Source of the DNA: Raja brachyura
Taxonomy: Eukaryota
Reading direction: 5' to 3'
DNA: 64,000 nt
NCBI GenBank assembly: GCA_963514005.1
Contig: OY740805.1
Location: forward strand, 31,496,001 to 31,560,000
Of the stretch, positions 511 to 63,715 are shown piece after piece. The notes beneath the pieces were generated by a model. It saw only the letters and a list, made by a program, of their open reading frames with translations, did no database searches and had not been told where the DNA came from. A program made the position numbers and the translations under genes. Position 1 is the first letter of the stretch. Every line of letters begins with the position of its first letter.

Positions 511-546
511 AATTAGAGCACATAAAAGAAGAGCTTGAGAAAACAG
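511..546 (+). CDS. Gene A micro-exon, 36 nt (ELEHIKEELEKT)
   Basis: tttctttcag|...|gtgaga. Confidence 0.88.
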
Positions 547-6500: not shown

Positions 6501-6710
6501 AGGACTGGTTTGCGCTTGGAGGTTAGGATCTTAAATTAAAGGTTAATAATTACATGAGAAGCATCTTGAATTAATAGTTTGGGCACTGTAGAAATATTAA
6601 GAATTATAAACGATTATACAAGTTATTTCTCGAAGAGCATATATTTCTCATCGACGTTTACAACTCCCATGTCTTTGCCCCAACAGAGGATCGGGAAAAA
6701 ACGAATGCAG
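511..6710 (+). CDS. Gene A (3' part): micro-exon coiled-coil protein, 8 exons
   Basis: Exons 511-546, 881-907, 1031-1057, 1852-1878, 2399-2434, 3649-3675, 4245-4271, 6687-6710, all AG/GT and phase 1. Spliced: ELEHIKEELEKT-AHKLKKNDA-EIAEHLKND-EIRLKESKS-ELDKLEIIRKDV-EALVKQKDE-ELERLRNII-KDREKTNA. First residue assumes an upstream G. Terminal exon uncertain. Confidence 0.85.
881..907 (+). CDS. Gene A micro-exon, 27 nt (AHKLKKNDA)
   Basis: gtgtttatag|...|gtacga. Confidence 0.8.
1031..1057 (+). CDS. Gene A micro-exon, 27 nt (EIAEHLKND)
   Basis: ttatctttag|...|gtgagt. Confidence 0.85.
1335..1510 (+). mobile_element. Penelope-like element fragment, degenerate
   Basis: IKPANNGGVAVVW resembles the PLE RT motif IKPADKGGAVVVW. 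Confidence 0.5.
1852..1878 (+). CDS. Gene A micro-exon, 27 nt (EIRLKESKS)
   Basis: ttatttttcag|...|gttagt. Confidence 0.85.
2399..2434 (+). CDS. Gene A micro-exon, 36 nt (ELDKLEIIRKDV)
   Basis: ttctaatttcag|...|gtaagc. Confidence 0.88.
3649..3675 (+). CDS. Gene A micro-exon, 27 nt (EALVKQKDE)
   Basis: ttttgattttcag|...|gtaaag. Confidence 0.85.
4245..4271 (+). CDS. Gene A micro-exon, 27 nt (ELERLRNII)
   Basis: ctttgtgttacag|...|gtaagt. Confidence 0.85.
4740..5990 (+). mobile_element. Penelope-like retroelement 3' part (RT C-terminus, GIY-YIG endonuclease, pLTR tail), frameshifted
   Basis: HPELKFTW..LPFLDV; SNLIYCIRCSRCQLLYIGET (GIY-YIG); tail ctgaagaagggt..cgaaacgtc. Confidence 0.88.
6687..6710 (+). 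CDS. Gene A micro-exon, 24 nt (KDREKTNA)
   Basis: tctttgccccaacag|...|gtgaaa. Confidence 0.72.
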
Positions 6711-12804: not shown

Positions 12805-12860
<56 letters not shown>

Positions 12861-13290
12861 ACGCACACACACACACTAATTTTGTGGCCTCCTGCTGGCC
12901 AGCCACCACAACGGCAGCTGCTGCAGCCCGCTTTTCTCCAAAAACGCCGCCACTTTTATTCCCCGCGGCCGATTATCCCTGGCGATTCGGCTCCCGATTT
13001 CACTTCCTCCCGCCGGCCCGGCTCGGCTCCATCACGCTGGCTGAAGACAAAGATCTCCTCTTCCACCGCTGTTTTTCGTGCTCCTAAATACAGCGGGTGA
13101 ACAGTCGATCTTTGCCTTGAGCCAGAGGGAAGGCAGGGACAACTCATTCCACAGTGAGTTCAGTTCGCTAACATTGTAATTGTCAGATTTGATCCGATTA
13201 ATGTGATTGGGGAGGGAGGGGGCTGGTTGTGATTGCCGTGGAGTTCCATCCATGTTTCTTCCGGGGGAGAAAGCGATTCTTCACTAATTA
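12579..13290 (+). mobile_element. Unclassified, possibly non-autonomous Helitron-like element with internal poly-C
   Basis: Begins a|tctatatactattaaaac followed by a (TG)-rich tract, like Helitron-N 5' ends; no clear CTAG 3' end found. Confidence 0.35.
12806..12860. repeat. poly-C tract
   Basis: About 55 consecutive C. Confidence 0.95.
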
Positions 13291-20160: not shown

Positions 20161-20267
20161 AACAACAAATCTCTAGATTTAACGTCTTAAAATGAAAATC
20201 AGTGGATGAAATGTGTCAGCATTTCCACTTTGTTTTATTCTCCATTTGCAACAGACGGGAAGTGACC

Positions 20268-20349
20268 ATGAATGTTACTGTTCATCGTTTGATACATTTA
20301 CTACATTTCCTCCTGGTGTTCGCAACCATTTTACGTCAAAATGTTGCAA
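20268..20349 (+). CDS. Gene B first coding exon, signal-peptide-like ([27 protein letters not shown])
   Basis: Strong acceptor tgttttattctccatttgcaacag ending 20254; gaccATG with A at -3; hydrophobic core [15 protein letters not shown]; phase-1 donor gttcga at 20350 (alternative phase-1 donor gtatct at 20359). Both donors are weak. Confidence 0.6.
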
Positions 20350-23300
20350 GTTCGATTCGTATCTGATGAAGTATTGCAATGGAATTTCTGGGTTTACATA
20401 TATATGGAATTGCAGTTGTGAATATAACCACTGTTTTATCCATTGCTCGCGATTTACAAACGAAGTTCATTGGAGGAACGAGGTATACTTTTTTACTTTT
20501 CTCTTTATAATTCTTACTTCTGAAACAGACGTGGTAGCTTTTGCTGGTACAGATACGTTGAATTATGTAAATCGATGTATCTGTCCTGTACTTTTCTTAG
20601 CACAGCATAAGGACTGCTTTGCTCAATTTGTACCATCTCTGAGGTCTTGTTCTACTCACTGGGAGTACATCATTGCAAGCCAAGATCCGATTTAATTATT
20701 TCCTCATAATTGTACTTTGCATTTAAATTAGGAAACTATTATTAATATTACATTGGCACATTTCTCAAACAAATTTGGCGATTTGATGAAATACTAGCAA
20801 AATATAAACATAAAACTATTTTCACTTTGCACGATAGAGTAAGTGGTGTCGGTCGTTATTTTCCATTTAACCATACAACCATATGACAATTACAGCACGG
20901 AAACAGGCCTTCTCGGCCCTACCAGTCCGTGCGGATCATTTATTTTCCCTTAGTTCCATCTACCTGCACTCAGACCATACCCCTCCATCCCTTCCCGTCC
21001 ATATACCTATCCACTTTACTTTTAAATGTTAAAATCGATCCTGTCTCCACCACTTCTGCTGGAAGATCATTCCACACAGCCACCACTCATTGAGTAACGA
21101 AGTTCCCCCTCATGTTACTCCTAAACATATGTCCCTTAATTCTCATGTCATCCCCTCTTGTTTGAATCATCCCTACCCTCAATGGGAAAATGTTTTCCAC
21201 GTCAACCCTGTCTATCCGTTTCATCATTTTAAAGACCTCAATCAAGTCCCCCCTTAACCTTCTGCGCTCCAAAGAATAAAGGCCTAACTTCTTCAACCTT
21301 TCTCTGTAACTTAGCTGCTGGAACCCAGGCAACATTCTAGTAAATCTCCTCTGTACTCTCTGTATTTTGTTGACATGTTATGTTATTTATTAGCTGTTTT
21401 TCTCTTCATTGTTGTGTCGAGGATATATAATGTTTCAAACTAAAACAGCTAGCTGGAACAACAGGAATATAATTGTCACATAATCTTTGTTTTCAGCGCA
21501 TTGTTTAAAATGTTGCCCAAAAATGTATATTTCGCTGTGGGCCTACAAAAACCTACTGAATGAACATAATATGTTTCATCGCTTTTCAGTTCCATACTTG
21601 AAAAACGAGAAAAAAGGAAGAGAATCATAATATTTACATTGTAACGTAACAAATTACATTTTCATTTCTACAACAGCAATGGCAGCACCGTCTGATCAAT
21701 ATATCAAAACGGAACCAGAAGATGGCGATGAAAAGAAGAGAGATGACTTGCACATTGGACATGAACGAAAGTTCAAATCCTTTAACGCAAAAGGTAATTA
21801 GGTGTGGATGATTCACTGGTATTCGTTAAAATGTCGTACTATTTGTAGTGCAATCTTGTTTTGAAAAATCCGTTGCAATTTCTATCTTAAGATAGTTTTT
21901 GAATAACGTCCATAAATATTGCAAATAAAAATCAAATAGGGTTTATCAAAAAAACGCAGCAAAACAAATTGTAAAATATAATGTGGTCCAGATTTCATAG
22001 AATAATGTTTTGAGTTGCCCGAGTTTGCAATGACAATCTGAACAACATTCGAAAAGCCAGCGGCGGATCTCGCTACTGTTTATCTGAGAGAATAAAATCT
22101 ACCCCATGAATTAACGTCTATTTACATATAAACCAATAGAATATACTAATTATCAAGACCAACACACAACCACCTCTCCACAACCGCTTCCCCACTTCCC
22201 CATAACCACCTCTCAACTTTAACTATCCGATGTGTTTCCAATTTCAGGATTGCTTTATTTAACGTATACGATTCATCATGACAATTCATCAGTTTGCGAT
22301 ACTCATCCACCAAAAGAGAGCCCGAATATATCACGTGCAGTTATGCCCAATGCCGATACTATCCAAGGATTACCTCTGTCCAAAGTACTACCACTGTTTC
22401 GATGTCAATGCAGCTTCAATAGATCGAGGTGCATTGAAGTATTTTGTACAATATACAAAATAAGCATTTTTGGTGTATTGGCGAAGGATGAACTTCAGTG
22501 CGAGATAGTCAATTAAAGTAATTAATATTCACCACATCAGCGAATGGACGTCACGTTTATGTTACTAAACCTTTATTGATCACCAAATTTGTACGCTTAT
22601 ATCAGAAATTCGGAATCGAGAAGAGAATGTCTTCTTTAACGTAATCATAATTATCATAATCATAATAGTATTTTACTAGCCAAGTATGTTTGCAACATAC
22701 GAGGTATTTAATTTATCATACAGTATTACAAATAAAGAGCAACAAGACAGCCAAATACTTTTTTTAACATGAACATCCACCACAGTGACTCCTCCACGTT
22801 CCGCACCGTGATGGAAGGCAAAAAAAAGTTCAACCTTCTTCCCTTTTTGGGCTGTTAGGGCACTCGTACTTTCCATTGCCGGGGCGATCTTGGCTCCCGC
22901 AACCGGCGGTCGAGCCTTCCGCGTCGGCGCGATCACGCTCCCACATCAGGATGATCTCAGTTCCCCCGCGCCCCACGATCAGAACCCGGGGCCGGTCTAG
23001 TCGAACCTCCTGCGACTTTGAAACTTCTCGACATCAGCCTCTACCCGAGACGTCGATCTCCTCGATGTTGAAATCCGCAGGCCGCGGTTGGAGCGTCAAT
23101 CCCAGGCAAGGGGTTGTCGGCTCCGGTAGTACGTCAACGACCCCGAGGTGGGGCTCATAGTCAGTCTCGAGCACGGCCGCCAGTTCCATGATGTTAGGCC
23201 GCAGAGTGTCCGGAGACACGACCCAGAAAATAATCGTATATCCGGTAAGGTAAGAGATTGAACAATGTTTCCGCCGACCCCCTCTCCCACCTCCCAGGCA

Positions 23301-26300
23301 AAACAAACCAAATAACATGAACACATACCTTTAAAACACACTAAAAATATTTTTTGAAAACGACGAAAAGACAGACACACTGTTGGCGAGGCTCCCATGG
23401 ATGACGGCGCCACCCGGTGTACATAATGTATGCTATTGTGCTCTCCGTAGCATTATGACTATGTAGTAGTATGCTTAGGAGTTCAGAATTCCCAATTGCT
23501 TGGAAACTGTAACACAGTGAGGAAATGGGGTTATTGCAACAATTTAGCAAAGTGATCATTTTTCTGAGCAGATGAATAGTATGTTGGCGAAATGCTAATT
23601 TTCTGATCCTCTTAAAATATCTAGAAATTATTCTTATGTTGTTAATTTTAATTTCTGAATTCTGCTTATTTTTTGGAATCGATTCTTATCTGGGTCGTCG
23701 TACAGAATTATGGACAATTCTATTCCAATTTTGCTATAACATAACTCTTAATTTATGATGATAGAATTACGCCAGAAAAGTGAGACGATTACTTTCACGA
23801 GGCTCCATCCTAAATTTGAGATATAAGGTATTTTGCGCAGTCGTTGGAAGGCTAAAGATAGAGTAAGATCGTTTGTTTAGCTGGTGTACATTGTGCATTT
23901 TAGTTCAGAGCAAGAGAGCACGAACGACGCCATTACACATTATCATATGTAGGTGCATTGGTTAAATGTGTAACATTGGACTTTCATTATGCGCTCAATA
24001 ATTTAAAGATAAAACTCTTACCCCTCCTCAAAACAAGGTTTATTTTTCTCTGTTATTAATAAACAATATTTTCATTAACCCTCCTAAAGAAAACGGTATT
24101 ATCGAACAGATGCCATCAAAGACTCAGTTTCGTTATGACAGTTCGTTTTGCCTTTGTATCCAATATTAGTTCTGATTATATCGAATGTAAATTCGCTTTA
24201 CATTTTTGCAATGTGAGCATTGACAAATGCAAATTCGGTATCCAGGGTTCCATTCAATGGGTAGTACGACTATGGACTTTGGGCATACATTTCAAGTGTC
24301 ATGTCTGTGCATTACAGATATCGCAGACTTGGTGGACAGTTTAAAAAATGCAGGTAAGACGTAAAGGGTAACGTCACTAATGCGGGGAGGGAGATATTCA
24401 AATGTTACTAATACCTTCTTTATATGATTGTGTTTCTATGGTAGCATTTTCTCAAAGATGCGCATGTCCAAAAATCGTGATATAAGTAAAGTAAAAAGGG
24501 GAAAACATCCCCGCATATTGTCAACTAGCTACTAACGATGCCAAACGATTTTCTGGTTAGATATCATAAAACGGGTATTTTACCTATGAATGTTGAAACT
24601 AAATGCATACACTGTAGTCAACACTCTCGACAACGGGAAAGAAAATAAACATATTTGGAGGATTGCTGACATTTGTTCTCCCGCCTGCATTATTTTCTTT
24701 CAGAAGCCGTACTTAGCGAAAAGGAGGAAGGTGTGTTATTATGTGGACCGTAAAGACTACGGATGCTTCAATCTTGACCAAATAACGAACTACCAGAAGA
24801 TCTCAACGAGTCAGGCATCATCTGTAGAGGGAATCATTCTGATGAAGTGTCCGGGCCCTAACATTGGCAGTCTGAAGAATGATTCCGACCCAAAAAGTCG
24901 CCTATCTATTTCCTGATTACCTGTTTCCGCTGAGTTCCTCCTCCGCGCCTGACCACTTGAGTTATGTATGTTTTTGCTGAAGGTAAATTAATTCAAAGTT
25001 CACCAACTAAAGCAAATCCGGGCGAATAAAGCATCATGACAACATAAGAAAAAATCCTAACATTGCGATCCAACTGCCTCGGCGTTTGTTGTAGGATATC
25101 CGGTATACTGCAAATGGTATTTTCGGTCAGACAATATCAAAATCATTCACTGTTGTCACTGTCCAGATGTCAAGTACGAGCCACATCATTGGAGCCTACC
25201 AGGGAGAAGGAAAATCTGGATTTAGTGTTATGTAATGAACCGGATTTCACAAAGGACCTCGAGGTTAATGAGCCATTAGAAGGCAGTGACCATAACATGG
25301 CCAGGTCTAATCTACAATTGGAGAGGGAGAAGAGAAGATTGGAGATGTCATTGTTGCAGTTGAATAAAGGGGACTTCGGGCCATGAGGGAGGAGCTGGCC
25401 AAAGTTGACTGGCAGATACACTAGCTGGGATGACAGTGGAGCAAAAATGGCAGGTGTTTGTAGGAATAATACAGAAGGTGCAGGATCAGTTCATTTCTAG
25501 GAGGAAGAAAGATTCCAAGGGAAGAAAGGGACGACCATGGCTGTCAGGGGACGTCAAGTGCAGTATAAAGATTAAAGTGAAGAAGTACAACGTAGCAAAG
25601 ATGAGCATGTCCACAAATCGTGATAGAAGTAAAGTAATAAGGGGAAAACATCCCCGCATATCCCCCGAAAAAAGAGGATTGGGTAATGTTTCAAGAACAG
25701 AAGACAACCAAAAATACAATACGGGGAGAAAAGATGAGGTACGAAGGTAAGGTAGCCAAGAATAAAAAGCAGGATAGTAAAAGCTTCCTTAGGTATGTGA
25801 AGAGGAAGAAAATAGTTAAGACCAAAGTTGGATCCTTGTCTACCGAAAAATGTGAATTTATCATGGGGAACAAGGAAATGGCAGACGTTGAACAGGTACA
25901 TTGGATCTGTCTTCACTAAGGAAGACACGAACAATCTTCCCGATATAGTAGTGGTGAGAGGATCAGGGGTGAGAGAGGAACTGAAGCAAATCGAGATTAA
26001 GCAGGAAATGGTGTTGAATAGACTGATGGGACTGAAGGCTGATCAATCCCCAGGGCTTGATGGTCTGCATCCCAGGGTACTTAAGGAAGTGGCTCTGGAA
26101 ATCTTAGGAGATCAGAATTAGAAATACATCGATATATGCAATTCCAAACGAAATTCCGTTGCATTTGGCTCTGCGTGCAACGCAATAAGAAACAGAAGGA
26201 TAAAATGGATTAAAATATAAATTGGAACAAAAGATAAAATAGACAATGTTGGCAGCCCATTACATGGCATTCAGGAGTCTGTTGGCTCGTGGGAAGAAGC

Positions 26301-29300
26301 TGTTGCAAAACCTAGACGTTCTGCTCCTTATGCTACGATATCTTTTGCCCGAGGGCAGCAGAGTGAACAGTCTGCTGCCTGATTTGAGGGTAGCTAATGT
26401 TGTCCCACATTTTGAGAAAGGCGGGAAAGAGAAAACAGGGAATTATAGACCAGTTAGGCTGACATCGGTGGTGGGGAAGATGCTGGAGTCAATTGTAAAA
26501 GATGAGATAGCCGAACATTTGGATAGTAGTAACAGGATCGGTCCGAGTCAGCAGGGATTTACGAAGGAGAAATCATGCTTGACTAATCTTCTGGTATTTT
26601 TTGAAGATGTAACTTGGAAAATGGACAAGAGAGAGCCAGTGGATGTAGTGTACCTGGACTTTCAGAAAGCATTTAATAAGGTCCCACATAGGAGATTAGT
26701 GGGCAAAATTAGGGCACATGGTATTGGGGGGTAGAGTGCTGACATGGATAGAGAAGTGTTTGACAGACAGGAAACAAAGAGTAGGGATTAACGGGTCCCT
26801 TTCAGAATGGCAGGCAGTGACTAGTGGGGTACCACAATGCACGGTGCTGGGACCGCAGCTATTCACAATATACGTCAATGATTTGGCTGAAGGGATTCAA
26901 AGTAACATTAGCAAATTTTCAGATGACACAAAGCTGGGTGGCAGTTTGAACTGTGAGGAGGATACTATGAGGGTGACTTGGACAGGTTGGGGAAGTGGGC
27001 AGCCGCATGCTCGATTACTATCTAAATGGCGTCAAGTTGCGAAAATGGGAAGTACAACGGGATCTGGGGTGTCGTTGTACATCAGTCTATGAAAGTAAGG
27101 ATGCAGGTACAGCAGGCAGTGAAGAAAGCGAATGGCATGTTGGCCTTTATAACAAGAGGAATCGAATATAAGAGCAAAAAGGTCCTTCTGCAGTTGTACA
27201 GAGCACTGGTGAGACCACACGTGGAGTATTGTGTGCAGTTTTGGTCCACGAATTTGAGGAAGGACATTCTTGCTATTGAGGGAGTGCAGCGTATGTTTAC
27301 AAGGTTAATTCCCGGGAAGGCGGGACTGCCATATGCTGAGAGAATGGAGCAGCTGGGCCTGTACACCTTGGAGTTCAGAAGGATGAGAGGGGATCTTATT
27401 GAAACATATAAGATTGCTACGGGCTTGGATACGCTAGAGGCAGGAAACATGTTCCCGATGTTGGGGGAGTCCAGAACCAGGGGCCACACTTCGAAGGAGT
27501 GAGCCACTTCGAACGGAGTCGATGAAACACTTCACCTCACAGAGAGTGGTGAGTCTGTGGAATTCTCTGCCTAAGAGGGCGGTGGAGGTAGGTTCTCTGG
27601 ATGCTTTCAATAGAGAGCTAGATAGGGCTCTTAAAAATAGCGGTGTCAGGGCATATGGGGAGAAGGCAGGAACGCGGTACGGATTGGGAATGATCAGCCA
27701 TGATCACATTGAATTCCGGTGCTGGTTCGAATGGCCGAATGGCCTAGCGCTGCACTATTGTCTATTGTCTATTATCATGTTTGAAATTGGATATCCCGAC
27801 AGAACCTTGATATATCACTCTCACGTTTTATCTTAATGACTTGGATTATCCTATTGGCTATCCTTAATGAAATCATGGATTGACCTATTAAAATAACCCC
27901 CTCGACTTTTCGTCATGTGGTGGACAGTTTTGATATTTTCAGAATTCGGAGTTCTTTTTTAAATTGTAAAATGCAATACAAATCAATTATATCGGAAATA
28001 TGGGCCAGAATTCACAATTAAATCTATGCTCTGCGTTGCTGTATTTTATTCAGAATTGAAGAAAATTATTGAAGCACTGAAGCGGAAAGGTGACTAATCA
28101 CTAAATATCGTTTTTAGCATGACGTACGAAAAAGCATGACATCACGACAATCTATGCTTCAAAGAGAAACAGAATGATATAGTGTGGGAATAGGCTCTTG
28201 GGCCCAACTTGTTCACACCGGCCAACATGTCCCAGCTACATTAGGCCCACCTGCCAGTATTTAGTGCAGAACCTTCCAAACCTGTCATATCCATCTGCCT
28301 GTCTAACTGTTTCTTGAATGTTGCGATAATCCCTGCCTCATCCACCGCCTTTGGCAGCTTGTTCCATAGTCCCAACACACATTGTGTGAGGACATTTTCC
28401 CTCACATTCCTATTAAATCTTTCCCCCTCACCTCGAACCTATGTCCATCTGTCTCCGTAAGCTACAAGAGTTTGGAAATTAAAGACACATGATTAAAGAA
28501 TGGCCCTTCGGCCCAGTATGTGCGTGAGTGCCATTAATTATGCCATCCCCGCTTCTACAGGTCCCATCTTCTCGTGAAAAAAATCACCCTGATCTAGAAC
28601 TCCATAGGCACCGATTCCCAAATTATTTCCGGCCACATATTCGTCGGACCAAAGTGGAAGTATAAAGCAAGAAATGTGGAATCTGATAACTTGAATATAA
28701 ACCGAAAATGATGGAAGCATTCAGTAGCAAGACAGTATATATGGAATAGAAACAGATTTAACGTGTAATACCCAAAGCACCTTGGACCCAGGTGCTTATT
28801 ACTATTTTGATTGTTGTGCTTCTGTCAACAGAAAATACTTTCGGTCAGCAAGAAAAAGGTATCAATTCTAATACGTGCGGTCCTTGTTCCATAGGTTTTT
28901 GTTTGCTTAACTTGCTATTTCATCAACATCTGTCAAATCTGTGTTGGGATATCTGTCAAATATTTGTGTCTTATTTTCCATAAAACTGTTTCCACTGTTA
29001 TGCCTTTGTCGTTCCCTACAGGAAGTATGCAACACACTCCCTCTGCATCGTGAATTCTGTATTTTAGCTCAGATTCTCTGAATTACTTCTGGGAAACGGA
29101 CGAGAAGAAATATGCGCAAGGAAAAATGCAGACGGTGAACATGCTCCCGGAAGAGTAAATTAACAGAGACATGCTAACAATGAAGATGGTTTAACCATCA
29201 ATAGCTCTATAATCTGAGAGCCATTAATTTGTCATTTATGTCCATTATTTGCTCCGTGAGATAACAGTAAGACTTCATTCACGTAAATCTTCAAAAGGAA

Positions 29301-53300: not shown

Positions 53301-56300
53301 ATTCACACCGCACTGAGCCACTTGGAACACCGGGAAAGCTACGTGGCGATGTTATTCATTGATTATCGCTCAGCATTCAATACTATAACTCCGGATATCA
53401 AACTGCTTGACCTAGGCCTCTCCTCCCCCATCTCCGCATGGATAAAAAACGTTCTCACAAAACCGCCCACAGAGAGTTAAACCCGGCCCCCACATCTCCT
53501 CCACCATCCTTTAAGCAGTGGCACACCTCAAGGCTGTGAGTTGAATCCACTCCTTTACTCCTTATACACCTGCCCACCCTTCCAACACGATTAATACATT
53601 TGCTGACGACACAACTGTCATCGGGCTGAACTCAGGGGGGGCGAGTCAGCATACAGGGACGAGATACAGTGACTGTCAGTGGTGTTCAGTAAATAACCTG
53701 AAACTGTACACCACAAAGGCAAAGGAGCTAATAACTTAACTTCAGGAGTAAACGGAACGCACACCCGGCCCCGCTCTGCATACATTGGACATGTGTGGAA
53801 AGGATGCAGACTTTCAAAATCCCAGGAGCCCACATATCCGACGGCCTCTCCTGGTCGGCCAACATCACTGCAACCGTCAAGAGAGCACAACAAAGACCCC
53901 ACTTCCTGAGAGTTATCAGCAGGCACAACACCAAGAAGGAGCTGTTGGTGGCCTTCTACCGGGCGACCATTGAAAGTCTACTGACATATTGCATGTTACT
54001 GTGGTATGCGGGCTGCTCTGCTGCAAATAAGAAAGCGCTCCAGAGAGTGGTAAAACATTAGAGAGAATCGCCGGCAACCAACTGCCCTTCGCTGGAGGAC
54101 ATTGCCACTTCACGCTACCTCAGCAGAGCCACTAAAATCACCAAGACTCCACACAACCTGGTCACCACCTTTTTGAACTGTTGCCCTCTGGCAGGTGTTA
54201 CAGGTCAACCAAAACACGCACTTTCAAACCCAGAGACAGTTTCTTCCCCAAAGCAATCTTCACACTCAATATGAAAAAACACTGAGTATTATTGATGCTG
54301 CACTCTTCCATGCTGCTACCCACCTTGCACTTTACTATCACCATGTGCAATACTGATTATTTACCTATCTTGACACCTAGTTTTTAACATTGTTTTTAAA
54401 TTGTGTCCTGTGTTGTTATGTTTGTATATTATGCACCAATGTGTGTCAATAATAATTTCGTTGTATGCAGTGCTTACAATGACAAATAAAGGCATTTAAT
54501 TTAAAAACATGGAATAGGCCATTCGGCCTTTCGAGCCTGCACCGCCATTCAATATGATCATGGCTGATCATCCAACTCAGTATCCTGTACCCGCCTTCTC
54601 TCCATACCCCCTGATCCCTTTAGCCACACATCTAACTCCCTCCATTTAAGAGCCAATGAACTGGCCTCAAGTACCGTGTGTGGCAGGGAATTCCATAGAT
54701 TCACCACTCTCTGTGTGAAAAATGATTTTCTCATCTCGGTCCAAAAATACTTCCCCCTTATCCTTAAACTGTGACCCCTTGTTCTGGACTTCCCCAACAT
54801 CTGAACAATCTTCCTGCATTCAGTTTGACCCTTCACTGGCAACAGAGATTTGCTTTAAATTGGAGTTGCGCTTGAATCTTGCCTTGCATGTATAAATAAC
54901 CTCCTTCCGTTGCTGATGAGATATCGCAGAAATGAGCTAATTAGTGTTCGCTGCCAATGTTCTATGGAAAGTCACGGCATTATTGTATCAACCAGCAGAA
55001 AAAACCGAAAAATCTTATTAATTTTTCTGTGAGCAAAGGTAAAATAAAGAAAAACACTGAATATGTTTTATATGGTTGATGGGTGCTGTCTTAACATTGT
55101 TTTAGAAACTGCTGTTACGAAGCACACAGTATCATTAAACACGTCAATAACGACGTAATGCTTCTATATTTCCCAACACTCTCTCTGTTCCCTTCCCTTC
55201 CGCAATATTTTCCATCTGCATATCTTACATAGCAGTTAGCACAAACATGTACTTGCCCGTAGGTGATTATTTTATCCTTTAGCTGGTACTAGGAAATAGT
55301 GAGCATATCGATCGAAATACTAATGTTTTATCATACAGCGGTGATCTGAGATCGCCTGCACGTTGCCGCAAAATATGTATTAATGGACTATATTCATATG
55401 ATGGAACATATTCATATAACGGAACATATTCATGTGTGTCACAGATGGATAGGGTAGTTAAGAACACTCGTGTTATGATTGCCTTCATAGGCTAAGGCAT
55501 TGATTGTCAATGTTTCTCCGCCTTGTTGCAGATGGACACAATATTGGTTAGACCGTACGGTTAGGTGTATCGTTGTGGTCTCGTTTATCGTTCGTTGCAA
55601 AAGGGACTCACAAGGATGTTGCCTCAAACTGAAGGCTGTAAATATGTGCAGAGACTGGATGGTCTTGGTGTATTCATATTGTATGATGGGGGGTTCAGGA
55701 GTGAATTTATAGATGTTTGTAGAGTTATGACTGGCATCAGTCGGCATCTTTTTGGTTGCACCAGTTCAGAGCTGTTCTGCATCTCGGAGAAAATGAAGAT
55801 ACAGCTCTCAGTGTGAAATATTCTGTATGTGTGGATCTAATTGTGTGTTGTCTGCACGTGAAAAGTCTACGCTTTGAAGATCTTATGGAAATTTGCAAGT
55901 TAACATCCAGCATTCGGACCCCGCTGGACTAAAACGTCTGTAATTCATTTTTAAAAGATGTTAACTCGAAATTTGTTTTTCAGAAAAAGATCAATTAAAT
56001 CAATTGCTCGATAAGGCCGGTTCGTTAAACTTAATTTTCAGATAGCCAGCCATCTTTACGCTTTGCTTCATTGATTTCAAGTATTTATCGGTTTGATGAA
56101 GTACGTCTATTCTGAAATCCCGTCGTATAGAATCACTTTATCCATTTAACGTAATCATGGCAAATGACTCCCTTCCGCATAAAGGAGAATGCATGTGGTT
56201 AAATCCTGAGCAAATATCAACATGCTGGAGGAAATCAGTGAATTAGGTTGCGCCTGTTTGGGGGAATGGACAGTTAACGCTTCGGTCGGGACCCCTCTGA

Positions 56301-59300
56301 GTCTCAAGAAACTCTCTCACCAATATCAATCATACTTTTATGAGTTTCTTACCCAAAAATCACTGCTCTTGATTCGACCGGACACGAAATGTCGCTTGTC
56401 TATGCCCTCCAGCTATGCTGCCTGTGCCGCAAGGTTACCCGAGCATTTGGTGTTGTCCGCTTTTTGTAATTCGTCTGGTATCATTTTTTGCTGTCAGCTG
56501 TTTGACGTCGTGTCTGTTTGCTGGATGTTCATAAGCCATTTGTCTTTTAACTTATTAAAAACTTTCCTTTATCTTAACAGAGCAAAAAATCGCCTTTCTA
56601 GAAGCAGGTAAACATTGTCAAAAATTAAATAAAACGATGTGATTTCATTTCTACAATCAGATTAACATGCATTCAATATATTCAAAGAAAAATGTGTTTA
56701 GCATTTTGGTGATGGTGGTAAAATGTGTTATAAGTGATAGTGATCAGCTTTGTTGCTGTTATTTTACGTTTCTTGCAGCCCAAGACAATAATATGGACAC
56801 CGGTGAGTCATATAACGAGTAATAGCGAGTGAATCCTGAACATATAACGAGTGGCTCGGGACTCTGAACATTAATATCCCTCCATCTGTTATTTGCACTT
56901 TATTAATTTATTAATTCATGGGTGTATTTATGTATAGAATTGTAGTCAATACCTTCTATGTCCTGTCGTGCTATGCAAAGAAAGATTTTCATTGTCCTGT
57001 CAAGGACACATGACAATAAACTCTTTTGACTTGACTTTTTTTGACTTTTGAACTCGAAATGAAATGATGCAGGCACTTGTAATTTCAGCTAAAATAACAA
57101 AATCCCTTCGCCAGAAGTTGGAACGAGCGAGAAAACAAGATGTGGAAGGAATGCTTGGGATAAATGAAATATCTCCGATTAAGTGAAGCTCATGAATGAT
57201 AGCAACGTTGCTGGACCCGATGGCGTTCTATATAAGAGGGAGGCGGAAAGTAAAATAAATTCAAAAGAGCAGCTGAAAAAAAACTGCCTATCGGCCTTTG
57301 GGATAATAAATAAAGCTTTGCATTTATCCTGGCCGTTGTTGGATGTTGCCAGGGTGTGTAAAATGCTACTACGTCACTGCGCCAGAGACCCGGGATCGAT
57401 CCTGACCGTGACTGCTGTATGGATACGGAGATTGTGCGTTTTCTTTGCTTGCAATAGGTTTGTTATAAGCACTTAATAAAGGGCTCACATGACCCAACTT
57501 TCTCGTCAGGTAGGAGGAGACAATGTAATTCAGTGTTATTCCCATTATACGTTCGTACCATTCTGGTAAAATAATATTGGATATGCCATCGTAAGCTCGT
57601 AATTTCTAATGTGATTGCATTTTAAGTGAGTGCTATATTTTGCAGATGATCGATTAGATGCAATCAGGGCAGGTAAATTAGTCCGTTAATTTGGATTGCT
57701 AATATGAAACCGCTATTGACATTTCACAGTTTCTGCGGTGTTTTAATTTAAATTTCGTGAGGTAAATAATAATTATTCTTTTCCCGTTAGAACTGCAAGC
57801 CCTCCGTGAATCTACAAGTGCGTATTCAACTATAAATCCTCAGTATTAGAAAAAATAATGTAATCATTCAAGATGTCGTTATGACTTGCATACTGTAAAT
57901 TAAGCCATTGCGCCTTTCGCATGCAGGTACTGTTGCCAATATTAAAAAAAATTACCACGTAGAGAAACTTGTATAACCCATAATAATGCAGCACCGTCTG
58001 TAGCAGTGGAGCTGCTACCCCACTACGCCAGAGACCCAGGTTCCATCCTTACCTCTAGTGTTGATTTGTTGTCCCTGTGACAGCGTGGCTTTCCTCTGGG
58101 TGCTCCGGATTCCTCCCACATTCCTAAGAAGTGCAGGTTAGAAGATTGGTTAGCTTCTGTGAATTTCACCGAAGGTGAGATAGCATAGCGCTGGTGTACG
58201 CGTGATCATAAAAACATGGAAACATAGGAAATAGGTACAATTCGGAGAAAATAGGTGCCAATAGGAATAGGACATATGGCCCTTTGAGCCTGCACCGCAA
58301 TTCTATATGATCATGGCTGATCATCCAACTCAGTATCCTGTACCTGCCTTCTCTCCATACCCCCTGATCCCTTTAGCCATAAGGGCCACATCTAACTCCC
58401 TCATAAATATAGCAAATGAACTGGCCTCAACTACATTCTGTGGCAGGGAATTCCACAGATTCACCACTGATATCGGTCCTAAAAGACCTCCCCCTTATCT
58501 TTCAACTAGGACCCCTTGTTCTGGACTTCCCCAACATCGGGAACAATCTTCCTGCATACAGCCTGTCCAACCCCTTAAGAATTTAGTAAGTTTCTATAAG
58601 ATCCTCCCTCAATCTTCTAAATTCTAGCGAGTACAAGCCGAGTCTATCCAGTCTTTCTTCATATGAAATTCCTGCCATCCCAGGAATCAGTCTGGCGAAC
58701 CTTCTCTGCAAGAATATCTTTCCTCAGATTAGGAGACCAAAGCTGTACGCAATACTCCAGGTGTGGTCTCACCAAGGCCACACTGCTGTACAACTGCTGT
58801 AGAACCTCCCTGTTCTTATACGCAAATCATTTTGCTATGAATGCTAACATACCATTCCCTTTCTTCACTGCCTGCTGCACTTGCATGCCCACTTTAAATT
58901 ACTGGTGTACCATGACACCCAGGTCTCGTTGCATCTCCCCTTTTCAAAATCGACCACCATTCAGATAATTCTACTTGCCTGGTCTTATCCATCAGAGTGG
59001 ATAACCTCACATATATCCACATTTACTGCATCTGCCATGCGTTTGCCAAATCACCCAACCTATACAAGTCACCCTGCAGCCCCATAGCATCCTCGTCACA
59101 GTTAATACTGCTCCCCACCTTCGTGTCATCCGCAAACCTGGAGTTGTTGCATTCAATTCCCTCGCCCAAATCATTAATAAATATTGTAAATAGCTGGAGT
59201 CCCAGCACTGAGCCTTGCGGTACCCCGCTAATCGATGGTCGGCGTACACTCGTCGGGAGAAGGGCCTATTCCCACGCTATATCACCAATCTACACTCAAC

Positions 59301-60791
59301 TGAATATGTAACCTGATTTTGAGAATGAAGAGACGATTTACGGAAGTAGAATCCGGCCACTGAAACAATTGACTTGTCTGGCTGGTGGTCAAAGCAAGAC
59401 CTTCCACCGATGTGGTTGATCATTACATTGAAAGGCTGTGACTCTTATGGGTACATTGCAGAGGAACTAATTACCAACATACGTACGTAAAAGAAAATAG
59501 GAAGAGATTAGTTATTTTAGATTAGTTCAACTGCCTTATTGCAAACATGAGATAACCTTTAACTACACTAGATTGAATGAAATCAGACCTAATTGAAAAG
59601 TCACTAAGGCAAATACAAAGGCAGAAGCAACTTATATCCGACTAAGCAAATTACAATCCCAGTTATTATACGACACATATAAGATTAAATATATGTCTAT
59701 ATGCGGAAGTCAATATATGTTTCGGTTTGAATAATACAATCTGTTAAACAGAAAACAGATATATCCCTGAGCTTAACTTACTTTAAGAAAAGTATACAAT
59801 AAGGTATTTATGGTAATTTTTGTTTGGCTTAGTTTGAATTTGGCTTACATTAATTCAGTTTAATGTAGTGTAGTTTAGAGATATAGCGCAGAAATAGGCC
59901 CTTCGGCCCACCGAGCCGGCACCAAACAAAGAATCCCGCACATTAACACTATCCCACACATACTCGGGACAATTTACACTTATAACAAGCGAATGAACCG
60001 ACAAACCTGGGCGTGTTTGGAGTATGGGAGCAAAACCGAAGATCTCGGAAAAAACTTACGAGGTCACGGGGAGAACATAGAGACAGCACCGTCGTCAGGA
60101 TAGAACCCAGGTCTCTGGCGCTGCAAGCGCTGTGACGCTGCAACTCTTCCGCACGCCACAGCACTGCCCTAAAATTAAATATATATATTTATATCTGAAA
60201 GAAAGCCACCCTTGTACATCAATCCAATTTCATCAATAACATCGCTTCCTGGACAGCAGTCAACCGGTGCAATCTTGGATGCAAAGGCCGTAAAATTGTA
60301 ATTTTCACAATAACATGCAGATCCGTAACCAACGTGACCATCTTTATAAGGAATACGTCGCATCTTAAAAGTGGGAGACGGTTTCCAAGTTCAGACAGCG
60401 ACGTAGAATGCGTGCTGCTTTCGAAACTAAGCGTTTTATTTCTAATAGTTTGCGCTGAGGTTAAAACATGTTAAAATTTAGTTCTGAGAATGTTTGCGAT
60501 TATTTTTCAGAGCAACAACTATTGACCAAAGAAAACGGTGTGTGTTTGGAAATTTAGATGGACATTGCGAAATTACATTTATCCTTAGAAAACACGGAGA
60601 TGCTGAAAATCTAATGTATGCGAACAAATCACATGAAAAAAAAATCCCGACAGACTCCACAGCACCTCTGGGAGGAGAAAAATGGATGACGTGTCATATG
60701 AAATACATAAGAGAGGAAAACATCCCTCGTCTTTCAATATTTCCATTGGCTCTTCTCCCACTCTCACACGCACGCACTAATTCATGCGCGT

Positions 60792-60877
<86 letters not shown>

Positions 60878-63715
60878 TTCCCTCCTTAATCTCTCACCAT
60901 GATGACTTATCGCTTAATCAACAGCCGACTTTTATTACATTCCTTCCGTCAGCCTTGCAATGGCGGGCTTGCTGGTCTCTCTCTCACAAAGTAGTTTCGA
61001 CCTAAATAGTCAATTCAATTTCTCTTCTCCTTACTTTCCTTTTATGAAAGTTCTGAAGTCTATTATTTCTCAATATTCCAGAAGCTAAGTAAACAATTTA
61101 AAATTAATTACCTACGAGTAAGTTGTTTATTGGAATTTGAAATTGGAAGGTGTTGCCATTTTCCTTTTATTCAAGTGTCAATGTGGAAGATTGAAAGGGT
61201 TCAAAGGTCGTTTATTGTCACGTGTACCAATTAATGTACGGTGATCGAATAAATGCGAGTAGTCGGCATACTGTTTTGAATTTGTAATGGCTGACCACAT
61301 ACATTACCTTAATTTTTAGAAATGAATACTATGCTACTTAGTCTGCAAGAAAAAGGTGAATGAATTGATTGAATGACAATTTAATCCCATCTAAACTTGT
61401 CGTTTGATTATATTGTGGTCCAAGAGACGGCGGATAGAAGTCTGCGCTTCGTATTTATGCCTAATTAGTGTGGACGACCAGGACAATTGGATGCGTCGCA
61501 GTTTCCAGAATGACAATGTACCATCAAACGATTTATGGTGAGCTACTAATACCGGTCAAGTTGATGGCTCAAAGATTGATCCCTGGTTGATTAAATTGTA
61601 AAATGTGCTGGATAACGAGTAACAACTGCAATGATTCCCGTGTAGTTAAATACAAAATAAAATATTTTAAAATGAATAAATAAAATAGTTTAAAAATACC
61701 TGTGATGAAACAATGTATTTACGTCAGAATGTACATTCTTGAAGAAATTGAAACTCAAATCTATCTCAGAGATAAGGAGATAAACCATTTATTTACATTT
61801 AAACCATTAATCAATGGCGGTGACGCATTCATCCGATTACCATCAATGATTATGGCATCTATAAATGTGACGAAGCATAGGAAACAACACTAAGATTAGC
61901 ACGCTTTGTTTTCCTCTTTCCATTCTTTAATGCACTCAATCGCACAGCGACAGGCATTTGCACTGCCATCGATCATCGATAACTGCAATATTCGTAGTTC
62001 CATTCACCGTGGAGGCCACAAACAACCTGAACCACAGGGTATATCCAGAAACGCCACTGTTATAACTGTGAATATATATAGAGGGTGAACAGCCTCGTGC
62101 AAAAAAAATAATTGTTCGCACGAAGTACAAGTCATTTTTGTATTTACTAGAACAAGGATGTTTACATGTTGCCGTTCATCACTTTAAATCTTGAGCGCTT
62201 TATACCCAATGTGGGCTGAACGTCACGCTGTCCGAACTGTCTCGAAAGATGAGGAGCACATTTATGGTGATTGGATTAGGAATGGGAAGTACGTGATATC
62301 CTAACTATGCTTATTTTGGTTTGAAAGATAACGTACTATCAATGAGAACTGCAGGTACGCTCACATCGTTCAGATTTTCGTTTGTATTTCTCACTTCACG
62401 ATGTTGAAACATACTGTATTCCACTGTTTTAAATTCCCTTTGGCATGTGCTGTTCATTCACCAACCTGTATGTGTTTATGTCTGTCTGTGTGTTTGTTTG
62501 TTTTTATCGATTGTTTTATTCTTTTGCAATAGCAGCAGTAATGAAGGATTGGAGATATGTGGGTTGTACGTGTCAACATTCGGGAGATATACAGAGCTTA
62601 AGTTCAGCAACTGCGAACAATCCTGAACATTTGTACTTACAGATTATTTTGTTTGCTGATCTTTTCTTTAAAATGCGTAATTATGTGATAACTCTCGGTA
62701 ATTCTCTGGAGCAAAGTAATTAAAACCCTTAAAACAAAGCAAACTGTAAAATATTGATGAAATGTGTTCTATGCACTCACAAAAGCAACACTAAAGACCC
62801 ATTTATTTATTTTTTCAATTCTGATGTTAAAGTCTCGTTGTATTACGATGGGATTTAACATCGACGCCAAACATTCTTTCAATCACTTTCAGGAAAGGCT
62901 TCAGCAACGGTGATATGCCAGTCAATTTAAATGCAATAGCACAGTAATGTAAATATATAGTACCCAGTGAAAATATATGTAACAATTTGCAGAACTTTGT
63001 GGAAGAAATATCAAACATGCTTACTTCCAGAACTAGAGAGAGTGAAAGACAATCTGCAAAATGCAGGTAAGGGTATATTTTTAAACTGTTAGGTATTAAC
63101 TCACCCTAACTTATTATTTCGGGTTTTGTAAAATATATCAGTCTTGAATAGTGATATAAGTAGAGTTTAAAATTCTTCTGGGTTGCTTACTGGAGTAAGC
63201 AAAGGCATAGGTCCGTACCTACTGGTCGGCACAGTTATAGCGTGCAAAATGAACAGTTTCTGGGCCTGTTTGATTTAATTGAGCCGAAGACTTATGACAA
63301 TCGAAATAGAGATGGAAAACTGGGTGATATTTAAATTAGTATTATCTACTTTTTTTTTAATACATTGACTGTACACACCGAAATTAGCACGAATTTTCTG
63401 AAGATCTGATTCTTACCGGTTTTTAGACTCACTTATCCAATCTAGTTTCTGAACAATAAACACAATACAACCAAAGTAACATAGATGGAAATAGTGGAAA
63501 TAGAAATGTAGTAGATTAGGATGGTGTATGAAAACAGCTCTAAGATCCGATAGCATATGTCAAAAATGAAATCGATTTTTGTAGATACCTTTCATCAGAA
63601 TCTCTAGCCGTTTCCCAAACAGGTGTTGTATTTTCCTTTTCAATATATTGTGTTTTGTTACATTCTATTTTACATTATTTAACTACAGAGGCGCAATTGG
63701 GAGACAAGGTTAAAG
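20268..63715 (+). CDS. Gene B (5' part, runs past window): putative secreted/anchored coiled-coil protein; leader exon, 117-nt exon and 32 micro-exons
   Basis: 34 predicted exons give one stop-free frame of 1153 nt (384 codons + 1). All junctions are phase 1 with canonical AG/GT. Hydrophobic N-terminus followed by heptad-patterned E/K/L-rich sequence. Confidence 0.82.
20870..21375 (-). mobile_element. CR1-like LINE 3' fragment
   Basis: [29 protein letters not shown]. Confidence 0.9.
21677..21793 (+). CDS. Gene B exon, 117 nt ([39 protein letters not shown])
   Basis: ttcatttctacaacag|...|gtaatt; 39 codons, open in phase 1, purine-rich. Confidence 0.78.
22640..23415 (-). mobile_element. Unclassified GC-rich interspersed repeat
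   Basis: Sharp composition shift and (atcata)n end; a partly similar stretch occurs at about 43290-43440. Confidence 0.45.
24318..24353 (+). CDS. Gene B micro-exon, 36 nt ([12 protein letters not shown])
   Basis: tgtgcattacag|...|gtaaga. Confidence 0.88.
24704..24730 (+). CDS. Gene B micro-exon, 27 nt (EAVLSEKEE)
   Basis: tattttctttcag|...|gtgtgt. Confidence 0.85.
25180..27775 (+). mobile_element. CR1/HER1-like LINE ORF2 (partial, frameshifted), with a nested insert at about 26104-26380
   Basis: [55 protein letters not shown]; insert is a minus-strand Rex/L2-type 3' end. Confidence 0.92.
28054..28089 (+). CDS. Gene B micro-exon, 36 nt ([12 protein letters not shown])
   Basis: gtattttattcag|...|gtgact. 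Confidence 0.85.
28180..28455 (-). mobile_element. CR1-like 3' end, degenerate
   Basis: Similar to 46540-46875 and to the reverse complement of 1-312. Confidence 0.65.
28832..28858 (+). CDS. Gene B micro-exon, 27 nt (ENTFGQQEK)
   Basis: gcttctgtcaacag|...|gtatca. Confidence 0.8.
30277..30312 (+). CDS. Gene B micro-exon, 36 nt, linker-like ([12 protein letters not shown])
   Basis: tatttttctgcttcag|...|gtagag. Confidence 0.7.
31158..31193 (+). CDS. Gene B micro-exon, 36 nt ([12 protein letters not shown])
   Basis: tttttacattgcag|...|gtaaac. Confidence 0.88.
32145..32171 (+). CDS. Gene B micro-exon, 27 nt (ERLLLKRET)
   Basis: tctacttctttcag|...|gtacgg. Confidence 0.82.
32301..32749. other. 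Assembly gap (449 N) following a (TCTA)n tract
   Basis: Run of N. Confidence 1.
33471..33497 (+). CDS. Gene B micro-exon, 27 nt (DSELIEKDT)
   Basis: ataatccctcaacag|...|gtaaga. Confidence 0.85.
34745..35340 (-). mobile_element. Penelope-like element 3' fragment
   Basis: Reverse complement resembles 5560-5990 (endonuclease end and tail). Confidence 0.75.
35774..35809 (+). CDS. Gene B micro-exon, 36 nt ([12 protein letters not shown])
   Basis: ttggttttatcag|...|gtgagg. Confidence 0.87.
36144..36170 (+). CDS. Gene B micro-exon, 27 nt (EKSRRDQEN)
   Basis: ttttctcttgaag|...|gtaagt. Confidence 0.82.
37399..38235 (-). mobile_element. Rex/Babar-like LINE 3' fragment with (TTCA)n tail
   Basis: [26 protein letters not shown]; closely similar to 53680-54500. 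Confidence 0.88.
39096..39131 (+). CDS. Gene B micro-exon, 36 nt ([12 protein letters not shown])
   Basis: gtttcctttccag|...|gtgaga. Confidence 0.88.
40947..40973 (+). CDS. Gene B micro-exon, 27 nt (EDTCNEKER)
   Basis: tccctcatttag|...|gtatgt. Confidence 0.85.
41095..41130 (+). CDS. Gene B micro-exon, 36 nt ([12 protein letters not shown])
   Basis: ttttatttctcag|...|gtgagt. Confidence 0.88.
41456..41482 (+). CDS. Gene B micro-exon, 27 nt (QESLKQRDK)
   Basis: tttttgcacaatag|...|gtaaac. Confidence 0.82.
42713..42748 (+). CDS. Gene B micro-exon, 36 nt ([12 protein letters not shown])
   Basis: cactatttacag|...|gtaaga. Confidence 0.78.
45299..45322 (+). CDS. Gene B micro-exon, 24 nt (VNKVAQVK)
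   Basis: tttctttcttgcag|...|gtagta. Confidence 0.7.
46160..46505 (+). mobile_element. Rex/Babar-like 3' fragment, degenerate
   Basis: ctcccatcaggccgcaggtat..cagattcagggacagtttctt; same type as 6770-7237. Confidence 0.6.
46540..46875 (-). mobile_element. CR1-like 3' end
   Basis: ccagcctcaactacctcc..ccatacacccaccacc..gtgtgaaaaag. Confidence 0.75.
47029..47055 (+). CDS. Gene B micro-exon, 27 nt (DLEKVRGNL)
   Basis: ctgtttactttag|...|gtatgc. Confidence 0.84.
   Translation: MWRKFVEI
47628..48060 (-). mobile_element. Penelope-like element 3' fragment
   Basis: [24 protein letters not shown] plus terminal repeat; homologous to 5560-5990. Confidence 0.85.
48150..48176 (+). CDS. Gene B micro-exon, 27 nt (EDQLKEKSN)
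   Basis: tcttggtttgagcag|...|gtaggc. Confidence 0.84.
48971..48994 (+). CDS. Gene B micro-exon, 24 nt (ELTKFQEK)
   Basis: tttacctttccag|...|gtaaat. Confidence 0.82.
50223..50249 (+). CDS. Gene B micro-exon, 27 nt (ENQMFEKQR)
   Basis: ttattttgattacag|...|gtaata. Confidence 0.84.
51233..51259 (+). CDS. Gene B micro-exon, 27 nt (EMESLIKIS)
   Basis: tttccttgacag|...|gttcgt. Confidence 0.8.
51921..52208. mobile_element. MITE with long terminal inverted repeats (Harbinger-like ends)
   Basis: gcccctgtcccacttaggaaac..gcggttcccggagg versus cctccgggaaccgc..gtttcctaagtgggaccagggc; about 80-nt imperfect TIRs. Confidence 0.8.
52755..52781 (+). CDS. Gene B micro-exon, 27 nt (EKENELKER)
   Basis: cttccttatttcag|...|gtagtg. 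Confidence 0.82.
53040..54500 (+). mobile_element. Rex/Babar-like LINE RT and 3' end, frameshifted
   Basis: [37 protein letters not shown] motifs. Confidence 0.9.
54507..54830 (-). mobile_element. CR1-like 3' fragment
   Basis: [25 protein letters not shown]. Confidence 0.88.
55984..56019 (+). CDS. Gene B micro-exon, 36 nt ([12 protein letters not shown])
   Basis: atttgtttttcag|...|gttcgt. Confidence 0.84.
56581..56607 (+). CDS. Gene B micro-exon, 27 nt (EQKIAFLEA)
   Basis: cctttatcttaacag|...|gtaaac. Confidence 0.86.
56779..56802 (+). CDS. Gene B micro-exon, 24 nt (AQDNNMDT)
   Basis: cgtttcttgcag|...|gtgagt. Confidence 0.8.
57646..57672 (+). CDS. Gene B micro-exon, 27 nt (DDRLDAIRA)
   Basis: ctatattttgcag|...|gtaaat. 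Confidence 0.84.
57791..57817 (+). CDS. Gene B micro-exon, 27 nt (ELQALREST)
   Basis: ttcttttcccgttag|...|gtgcgt. Confidence 0.8.
57985..58205 (+). mobile_element. HE1-like tRNA-derived SINE, degenerate
   Basis: cgccagagacccaggttccatcct (B-box-like); ctccggattcctcccacattcc core; related fragment at about 57360-57450. Confidence 0.65.
58210..59230 (-). mobile_element. CR1-like LINE 3' fragment
   Basis: [25 protein letters not shown]; 3' end matches 54507-54830. Confidence 0.9.
59860..60170 (-). mobile_element. HE1-like tRNA-derived SINE
   Basis: gtcaggatagaacccaggtctctggcgctg head; CR1-type ggcccttcggccc 3' tail. Confidence 0.75.
60511..60537 (+). CDS. Gene B micro-exon, 27 nt (KQQLLTKEN)
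   Basis: attatttttcag|...|gtgtgt. Confidence 0.82.
60793..60874. repeat. (CA)n microsatellite
   Basis: Near-perfect dinucleotide run. Confidence 0.95.
61320..61355 (+). CDS. Gene B micro-exon, 36 nt ([12 protein letters not shown])
   Basis: ccttaatttttag|...|gtgaat. Confidence 0.84.
62328..62354 (+). CDS. Gene B micro-exon, 27 nt (DNVLSMRTA)
   Basis: ttttggtttgaaag|...|gtacgc. Confidence 0.75.
63031..63066 (+). CDS. Gene B micro-exon, 36 nt ([12 protein letters not shown])
   Basis: gcttacttccag|...|gtaagg. Confidence 0.9.
63689..63715 (+). CDS. Gene B micro-exon, 27 nt (EAQLGDKVK)
   Basis: ttatttaactacag|...|gtaagc. Confidence 0.86.

Follow-up and report, generated by a model that had tools for sequence, protein, structure and literature searches.

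A 64,000-nucleotide stretch of Raja brachyura DNA (C25:31,496,001-31,560,000, hereafter the window) raised the question of whether exons of only a few codons can form a single gene there, and what kind of gene it would be. An earlier note had described a hidden, leader-bearing coiled-coil gene of at least 32 micro-exons spread over more than 43 kb, and had likened its design to schistosome micro-exon genes (MEGs) and to the tails of chicken BG and butyrophilins. Coordinates below 1 or above 64000 are given on the same axis, extended along contig C25.

The window carries a one-strand array of phase-1 micro-exons

We found all 32 proposed micro-exons in the DNA as described, on the plus strand at 24318-63715 (Table 1). 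They all have AG..GT ends, are read in phase 1, and provide 954 coding bases over 39.4 kb in three lengths only: 27 nt (18 exons), 36 nt (11 exons), and 24 nt (3 exons). The joined frame is free of stops, as had been stated, and encodes 317 aa, while the other two frames contain 24 and 19 stops.

Acceptors and donors were scored with approximate splice matrices. Using the splice score only, with no coding filter, we obtained 13, 12, and 3 plus-strand candidates of 27, 36, and 24 nt, respectively. The same scan on the minus strand, which the earlier note had suggested as a null control, returned 1, 0, and 0. At every other length from 15 to 60 nt, either strand gave at most 4 candidates. The description of each acceptor as pyrimidine-rich holds for most exons but not for all, since 6 of the 32 scored below zero and one scored zero by our matrix.

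The 32-exon product had a heptad score of 0.396, a value reached in none of 1000 shuffles of its residues (0.253) and in 9 of 1000 shuffles of its exon order (0.32 ± 0.03). Adjacent exons add up to 63 nt, or three heptads, in 18 of 31 pairs (shuffle p 0.014), and the eighth full codon of the 36-nt exons is hydrophobic in 11 of 11 cases. As 30 of the 32 exons end in G and the junction residue is Glu in 20 of 31 cases, any exon order stays open (stops in 0 of 1000 shuffles).

Table 1. Features in the window. Genes C and D are neighbouring paralogues; gene A is a further paralogue.
Feature	Position	Strand	Remark
Gene C (upstream paralogue) exon, 36 nt, phase 1	511..546	+	
Gene C exon, 27 nt	881..907	+	
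Gene C exon, 27 nt	1031..1057	+	
Gene C exon, 27 nt	1852..1878	+	
Gene C exon, 36 nt	2399..2434	+	
Gene C exon, 27 nt	3649..3675	+	
Gene C exon, 27 nt, weaker sites	4245..4271	+	
Gene C last micro-exon, 24 nt	6687..6710	+	
Gene C candidate terminal exon: acceptor (score 5.4), two codons, stop; no B30.2	9066..9076	+	inferred only
Gene D candidate leader/anchor exon	20255..20349	+	unproven
Gene D 117-nt phase-1 exon, in-frame ATG at 21679	21677..21793	+	good splice sites
Gene D micro-exon 1, 36 nt	24318..24353	+	decayed copy elsewhere
Gene D micro-exon 2, 27 nt	24704..24730	+	
Gene D micro-exon 3, 36 nt	28054..28089	+	
Gene D micro-exon 4, 27 nt	28832..28858	+	
Gene D micro-exon 5, 36 nt, Pro/Gly linker-like	30277..30312	+	
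Gene D micro-exon 6, 36 nt	31158..31193	+	
Gene D micro-exon 7, 27 nt	32145..32171	+	
Gene D micro-exon 8, 27 nt	33471..33497	+	
Gene D micro-exon 9, 36 nt	35774..35809	+	
Gene D micro-exon 10, 27 nt	36144..36170	+	
Gene D micro-exon 11, 36 nt	39096..39131	+	
Gene D micro-exon 12, 27 nt	40947..40973	+	
Gene D micro-exon 13, 36 nt	41095..41130	+	decayed copy elsewhere
Gene D micro-exon 14, 27 nt	41456..41482	+	copy elsewhere
Gene D micro-exon 15, 36 nt	42713..42748	+	
Gene D micro-exon 16, 24 nt	45299..45322	+	
Gene D micro-exon 17, 27 nt	47029..47055	+	
Gene D micro-exon 18, 27 nt; alternative acceptor 3 nt upstream possible	48150..48176	+	
Gene D micro-exon 19, 24 nt	48971..48994	+	intact copy in A
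Gene D micro-exon 20, 27 nt	50223..50249	+	A copy: donor lost
Gene D micro-exon 21, 27 nt	51233..51259	+	intact copy in A
Gene D micro-exon 22, 27 nt	52755..52781	+	A copy dead: stop and donor lost
Gene D micro-exon 23, 36 nt	55984..56019	+	intact copy in A
Gene D micro-exon 24, 27 nt	56581..56607	+	intact copy in A
Gene D micro-exon 25, 24 nt	56779..56802	+	
Gene D micro-exon 26, 27 nt	57646..57672	+	
Gene D micro-exon 27, 27 nt	57791..57817	+	
Gene D micro-exon 28, 27 nt	60511..60537	+	
Gene D micro-exon 29, 36 nt	61320..61355	+	
Gene D micro-exon 30, 27 nt	62328..62354	+	intact copy in A
Gene D micro-exon 31, 36 nt	63031..63066	+	intact copy in A
Gene D micro-exon 32, 27 nt	63689..63715	+	intact copy in A; gene runs past window end

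Gene D runs far beyond the window

The extent of more than 43 kb turned out to be far too small, although the exons on which it was based are real. The array passes both window ends, and eight more exons lie at 511-6710. Gene D itself runs for about 245 kb to a short terminal exon with a stop at 265,675, about 201.7 kb beyond the window end; this exon has a weak acceptor (score 0.3), and its stop lies at the same place in paralogue A.

Our best model of gene D has 128 micro-exons (77 of 27 nt, 32 of 36 nt, 14 of 24 nt, 2 of 18 nt, 2 of 21 nt, and 1 of 33 nt) in a single open frame of 1,272 aa, counted from the Met at 21679. Gene A supports 77 of these exons, the electric ray Narcine bancroftii supports 45, and 37 are supported by both. 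A few exons of the model are surely false or missing, and we infer the gene boundaries; the 32 window exons are likely the 5′ fifth of the gene. We hold the gene structure itself with high confidence. A 21-nt candidate at 244015 was rejected as a repeat (flanks 95% identical). LINE-type retrotransposon fragments were seen in introns and in the C-D gap (25400-27800, 13560-14500, and 4700-5600).

Gene D belongs to a cluster of micro-exon paralogues

Scanning 1.2 Mb with a combined score, whose composition term was trained on the window exons and used on both strands, we obtained 244 micro-exon candidates on the plus strand vs 8 on the minus strand. Over the range from below -798 kb to +470 kb, gaps split the candidate runs into segments that we call Z, A, B, C, D, and E. 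Gene B, upstream of the window, ends in an intact B30.2 exon (Pfam SPRY, E 7e-12), and we found no other B30.2 in the 1.4 Mb around the window. A second, likewise intact B30.2, 71% identical, closes a copy of B that lies inverted at C25:29.61 Mb (B′). Of 12 blocks of 10 kb sampled between B′ and the region around the window, 9 contained plus-strand micro-exons and 0 contained any on the minus strand. The whole cluster spans at least 2.35 Mb and has at least 7 members.

The above observations raised the question of whether the segments are separate genes. They might instead all belong to one or two giant transcription units that use alternative last exons, with the 117- and 132-nt exons as internal linkers and with B30.2 at the end of the longest forms. 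The large exons do have proper acceptors and are open end to end, and a search for a promoter or first exon of B and E identified none. The C-to-D gap is small (13.5-15 kb vs 9-11 kb for the largest gaps inside D), and B follows A, as E follows D, at a similar offset of about 580 kb. However, the terminal B30.2 exon of gene B lies in the middle of the array, so at least two units would be needed; no B30.2 was found at the end of D or E or in the 134 kb after E, and a RING gene intervenes. Moreover, B, C, and E end at one homologous module (judged by eye), and their DNA sequences are not close copies. B′ is inverted, and in Narcine B and D/A are represented by separate models. We consider giant units improbable and treat the segments as separate paralogous genes.

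Several local duplications were seen among the paralogues. In gene C, a 24-kb block of at least 7 exons, introns included, is tandem-duplicated at about -50 kb to -6 kb (about 75% identity), and several 18-21-nt exons, repeated singly in tandem, lie at -105 to -99 kb. Five similar 27-nt exons stand in tandem in gene E (406.7-423.9 kb). In the inverted B copy, on the minus strand of C25:29,638,000-29,660,000, a short exon group has expanded about 7 times, and many of its exons have a final Cys codon. Gene C starts with a 17-nt exon carrying an ATG (-130902 to -130886, about 131 kb upstream of the window), which corresponds to an 18-nt internal exon of another paralogue; the 17-nt exon has either become a new start or suffered a frameshift.

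The exons of gene D are under purifying selection

Genes D and A are collinear at about 70% identity, introns included. We aligned 83 of 119 D candidates, in a set that includes a few false or mis-paired rows; AG was kept in 82, GT in 79, and 82 were free of indels. Exon identity was 82% vs 71% in the flanks, differences peaked at third positions, and dN/dS was 0.39. By this comparison with paralogue A, the D exons are shown to be under purifying selection. Among the 32 window exons, only 7 have an intact positional copy in A and 2 have dead copies; an assembly gap interrupts the A alignment, which does not reach the first 18 window exons.

Dead copies could also mean that the window exons are a decaying, untranslated duplicate, and a decayed D-like fragment at C25:29.76 Mb would fit this idea, as would the lack of RNA from Raja brachyura over the exons among the matches listed. 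We compared 11 presumed-RNA runs with 20000-39500; 4 matched repeats, and no exon-to-exon joint was among the matches listed, nor was any RNA match listed for 20200-21850, results that are neutral as evidence. Decay is difficult to reconcile with the absence of stops in 32 exons and 31 junctions, with the long open frame of the 128-exon model, with the dN/dS value, and with a conserved Narcine orthologue that has many isoforms. We regard a decaying duplicate as very improbable.

The decayed relic occupies C25:29,756,000-29,775,100 and adjoins an assembly gap. It carries copies of early D exons followed by the last introns of B, a layout that points to an earlier gene that opened like D and closed like B.

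Narcine orthologues, under unrelated names, support the exon order beyond the window

Of 3979 candidates in a homologue search, the 3 that matched were all Narcine proteins. Through the B30.2 exon of gene B, we reached the Narcine bancroftii proteins XP_069775384-90 ("zinc-binding protein A33-like"), which match 14 gene B exons in order and are 65% identical in B30.2. The rod of this B orthologue led to XP_069775418-28 ("golgin subfamily A member 6-like 22/24", "trichohyalin-like"), which have no B30.2. On XP_069775418 (isoform X1), 45 gene D exons chain in order with 69% identity. Of 44 neighbouring pairs, 38 are spaced by exactly one junction residue, vs 1 with the reversed protein. Deletions of 8, 8, 11, and 12 residues among the isoforms each coincide with a single predicted exon, and one of 23 residues coincides with no predicted exon. 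As a rule, RefSeq isoforms are backed by RNA reads.

These models have limits of their own. They are 353-597 aa long, under half of gene D, and carry automatic names; they cover gene D at 132-236 kb only and include zero of the 32 window exons. Their N- and C-termini are unrelated and look like intron read-through, so they do not fix the gene ends. The golgin A6-like and trichohyalin names look like generic coiled-coil labels. In the Narcine protein P0006 we found SPRY and a weak PRY only, and the name "zinc-binding protein A33-like" thus follows from B30.2 alone. An AlphaFold prediction of P0006 made without an alignment (mean pLDDT 53.8) gave three long helices over residues 3-196, with B30.2 poorly modelled, a result of little weight. 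Predicting a homodimer of P0013 residues 75-335 gave a score of 0.00, no answer either way, and an Atlas search with the Narcine rod reached a best score of 0.77, below threshold.

Hence the gene is not wholly hidden, contrary to what had been proposed, since RefSeq holds orthologue fragments under unrelated names; the proposal that predictors would miss it is supported in that they fragment it. It is also uncharacterised, as expected: the open literature, searched through listings and abstracts, yielded no description of the gene family. A table in a shark skin paper has an entry "zinc-binding protein A33-like" that, as it appears in that table, may be any TRIM (PMC10707392). A term search of a paper on cartilaginous-fish MHC (PMC10751288) found no mention of TRIM, BTN, B30.2, or coiled-coil genes.

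The start of gene D

The 117-nt exon at 21677-21793 is present as the earlier note had it. It is a single copy in the genome by DNA and protein searches, has a copy in a relative with 79% identity, and is weakly homologous to the large opening exons of B and E; in this weak alignment, the Met is common to D, E, and B. Its protein search gave no match among longer proteins and no Pfam family, and among 1.84 billion protein representatives only one relative's open frame and one unrelated repeat protein were matched.

The leader-bearing claim is less secure. An ATG and a hydrophobic stretch do exist 1.3 kb upstream, in frame with the 117-nt exon, and would be compatible with a cleaved signal peptide, in which case gene D would be a secreted fibrous coiled coil (of mucus, jelly, egg case, or matrix) with MEG-like exon skipping. 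The candidate exon has an acceptor at 20255, an ATG 13 nt on at 20268, 27 codons, and a phase-1 donor, and its 15-residue hydrophobic stretch has a mean hydropathy of 2.42 (best 19-residue hydropathy 1.71). Look-alikes are rare, 5 on the plus strand and 7 on the minus strand per 811 kb, by thresholds set after seeing the leader exon. For two related species, 0 of 13 listed variant sites fall in the first 226 of 701 bases, leader exon included, with the boundary at 226 chosen afterwards and 5 further differences counted without positions. The lack of B30.2 in gene D would also suit secretion. Yet the leader donor scores -3.7, below the lowest (-1.9) of 78 donors confirmed by paralogue A. We looked for a homologous leader upstream of genes B, C, and E and found none, and the Narcine B orthologue begins without a leader. 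B30.2 proteins are mostly cytosolic, with secreted exceptions such as snake vespryns. We also rejected further leader candidates upstream of B, C, and E, and a hydrophobic 60-nt candidate downstream of gene B.

We give the leader exon roughly an even chance of being used by gene D. It might then serve as a signal that is cleaved off, or as an uncleaved anchor that keeps the rod cytosolic. The secreted gene D seems unlikely to us, and we prefer a rod that faces the cytosol. A CpG-rich low-copy stretch at 12700-13150, with a strong donor at 13153, lies 7 kb upstream of the leader candidate and is a possible promoter or first exon of gene D.

Gene D resembles the BG tail but is no BG, butyrophilin, or TRIM gene

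Of the two analogues offered earlier, the BG/butyrophilin tail is the right one, and the secreted, MEG-like reading depends on an unproven leader. Chicken BG genes and zipper protein have in common with gene D a long heptad tail, many tiny exons, a split first codon, and heptads that straddle exons (PMC5938342, PMC4046983, PMC8813856). The BG cluster, like that of gene D, is tandem, changes in copy number, and lies near TRIM/B30.2 genes on the MHC chromosome, with no terminal B30.2; BG splicing alters tail length, as skipping does in the Narcine models of the D-type gene. A BG gene combines signal, IgV, and transmembrane exons with a tail of 13-36 exons, which are 21 nt long or, in some cases, 18 or 24 nt, whereas gene D has about 128 exons, mainly of 27 and 36 nt, and an Ig exon was not found; the two are compared by design alone. 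The phase-1 heptad design is common to both, but the unit differs, gene D not being built on 21-nt heptad exons. As a putative BG-type transmembrane exon before the tail, the leader candidate would be expected in phase 1 after an Ig exon; its entry is in phase 2. The BG tail is presumed to form a two-chain coiled coil, and the soluble zipper protein is described as a regulator of actin-myosin in gut epithelium (PMC5938342, PMC4046983).

With butyrophilins (PMC12841164), the sister genes B and B′ share heptad exons, a 30-nt exon, and a terminal B30.2 exon. Butyrophilins have few heptad exons, however, while B/B′ and D have dozens to more than 100, and no IgV, IgC, or clear transmembrane exon. 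The best solved-structure match of the gene B B30.2 is BTN3A1 (E 1.4e-24), and TRIM58, pyrin, and TRIM21 also match, so butyrophilin is no more than a candidate ancestor. Schistosome MEGs (bioRxiv 10.1101/2023.06.21.545858) resemble gene D in short exons that are mostly multiples of three, long introns, many splice forms, and being missed by annotation. They differ in having 10-20 exons, mostly of 15 nt, and in their proteins, which reach at most 189 aa, carry a clear signal peptide, and lack a long coiled coil. The likeness is one of design only, and homology is not expected. Gene D nevertheless has the symmetric, skippable micro-exons of the MEG design, and skipping is seen in the Narcine RefSeq isoforms.

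The chromosome provides the linkage known from BG and butyrophilin genes. MHC class I exons lie at C25:18-24 Mb (7 of 12 matches), and a large cluster of SPRY exons lies at C25:33-42 Mb (best 150 of 412 candidates scored), so the gene D cluster is linked to both MHC and TRIM-B30.2 clusters. Butyrophilin IgC (PF22705) gave 50 matches among 85 candidates scored; those on C25 are at 11.7-12.1 and 40.1-42.4 Mb, with none at C25:29.6-32.0 Mb. In the four gaps before B, C, D, and E, no Ig family was found (150 of 152 low-copy plus-strand frames of at least 80 aa, border-crossing frames left out), and neither RING nor B-box was found in these gaps. We therefore reject gene D as a BG, butyrophilin, or TRIM gene, as no Ig, RING, or B-box exon was found and it has no B30.2. 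A triadin- or elastin-type micro-exon gene was rejected too, as a poor fit in composition and heptads. The family shares 27/36/24-nt exons that are homologous, and keep their order, from paralogue to paralogue and from species to species. In summary, gene D follows the BG-tail design and fails membership of the BG, butyrophilin, and TRIM families, and the databases hold misnamed fragments of it.

A model for the growth and role of the rod

We propose that gene D encodes a cytosol-facing, dimeric coiled-coil rod whose length is set by exon skipping, a chain of steps that, taken whole, we judge evenly poised between right and wrong. The rod would have grown as symmetric phase-1 exons were duplicated in tandem, mostly in 36+27 pairs of three heptads, and such exons could be skipped or lost without breaking the frame. 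Whole-gene duplication would then have given paralogues that kept or lost B30.2. The start codon may be the Met in the 117-nt exon; alternatively, translation may begin in the hydrophobic exon upstream, which would then act as an uncleaved membrane anchor. A coiled coil rises 0.15 nm per residue, and the rod would be about 180 nm long if continuous. The rods may dimerise, possibly with B30.2-bearing paralogues, and could act like a free chicken BG tail (zipper protein), as a tropomyosin-like cytoskeletal or immune scaffold.

A bolder and quite doubtful extension is that these ectodomain-free rods, a multi-megabase family on the MHC chromosome of cartilaginous fishes, form a combinatorial repertoire by means of hundreds of skippable heptad exons. 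Rods without B30.2, such as that of gene D, would pair with B30.2 rods and in this way determine how far an intracellular sensor reaches and how it is spaced; the family would have a common origin with BG and butyrophilin tails.

In either case, several hundred coding exons in a cluster of this size lie between the MHC class I and TRIM/butyrophilin clusters of a cartilaginous fish and offer an outgroup for the question of BG-tail origin and role. They also allow exon-by-exon birth and death to be followed under selection in a vertebrate coiled coil with a two-exon, three-heptad unit, and the exact predicted junctions can be used against existing ray and shark RNA.

Neighbouring loci

At about 470 kb the cluster gives way to a RING gene and a tektin-like gene. 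The RING gene comes first after the cluster (L094:2113-2748); its single large exon encodes a RING finger and, at the C-terminus, a hydrophobic stretch, and we take it to be RNF183/RNF152-like. Two minus-strand frames in L100-L101 match Tektin weakly, short of the curated cut-off. Minus-strand frames at L070:9521 to L071:255 and L072:9095-9583, between genes A and B, resemble an RBM4-type RNA-binding protein.
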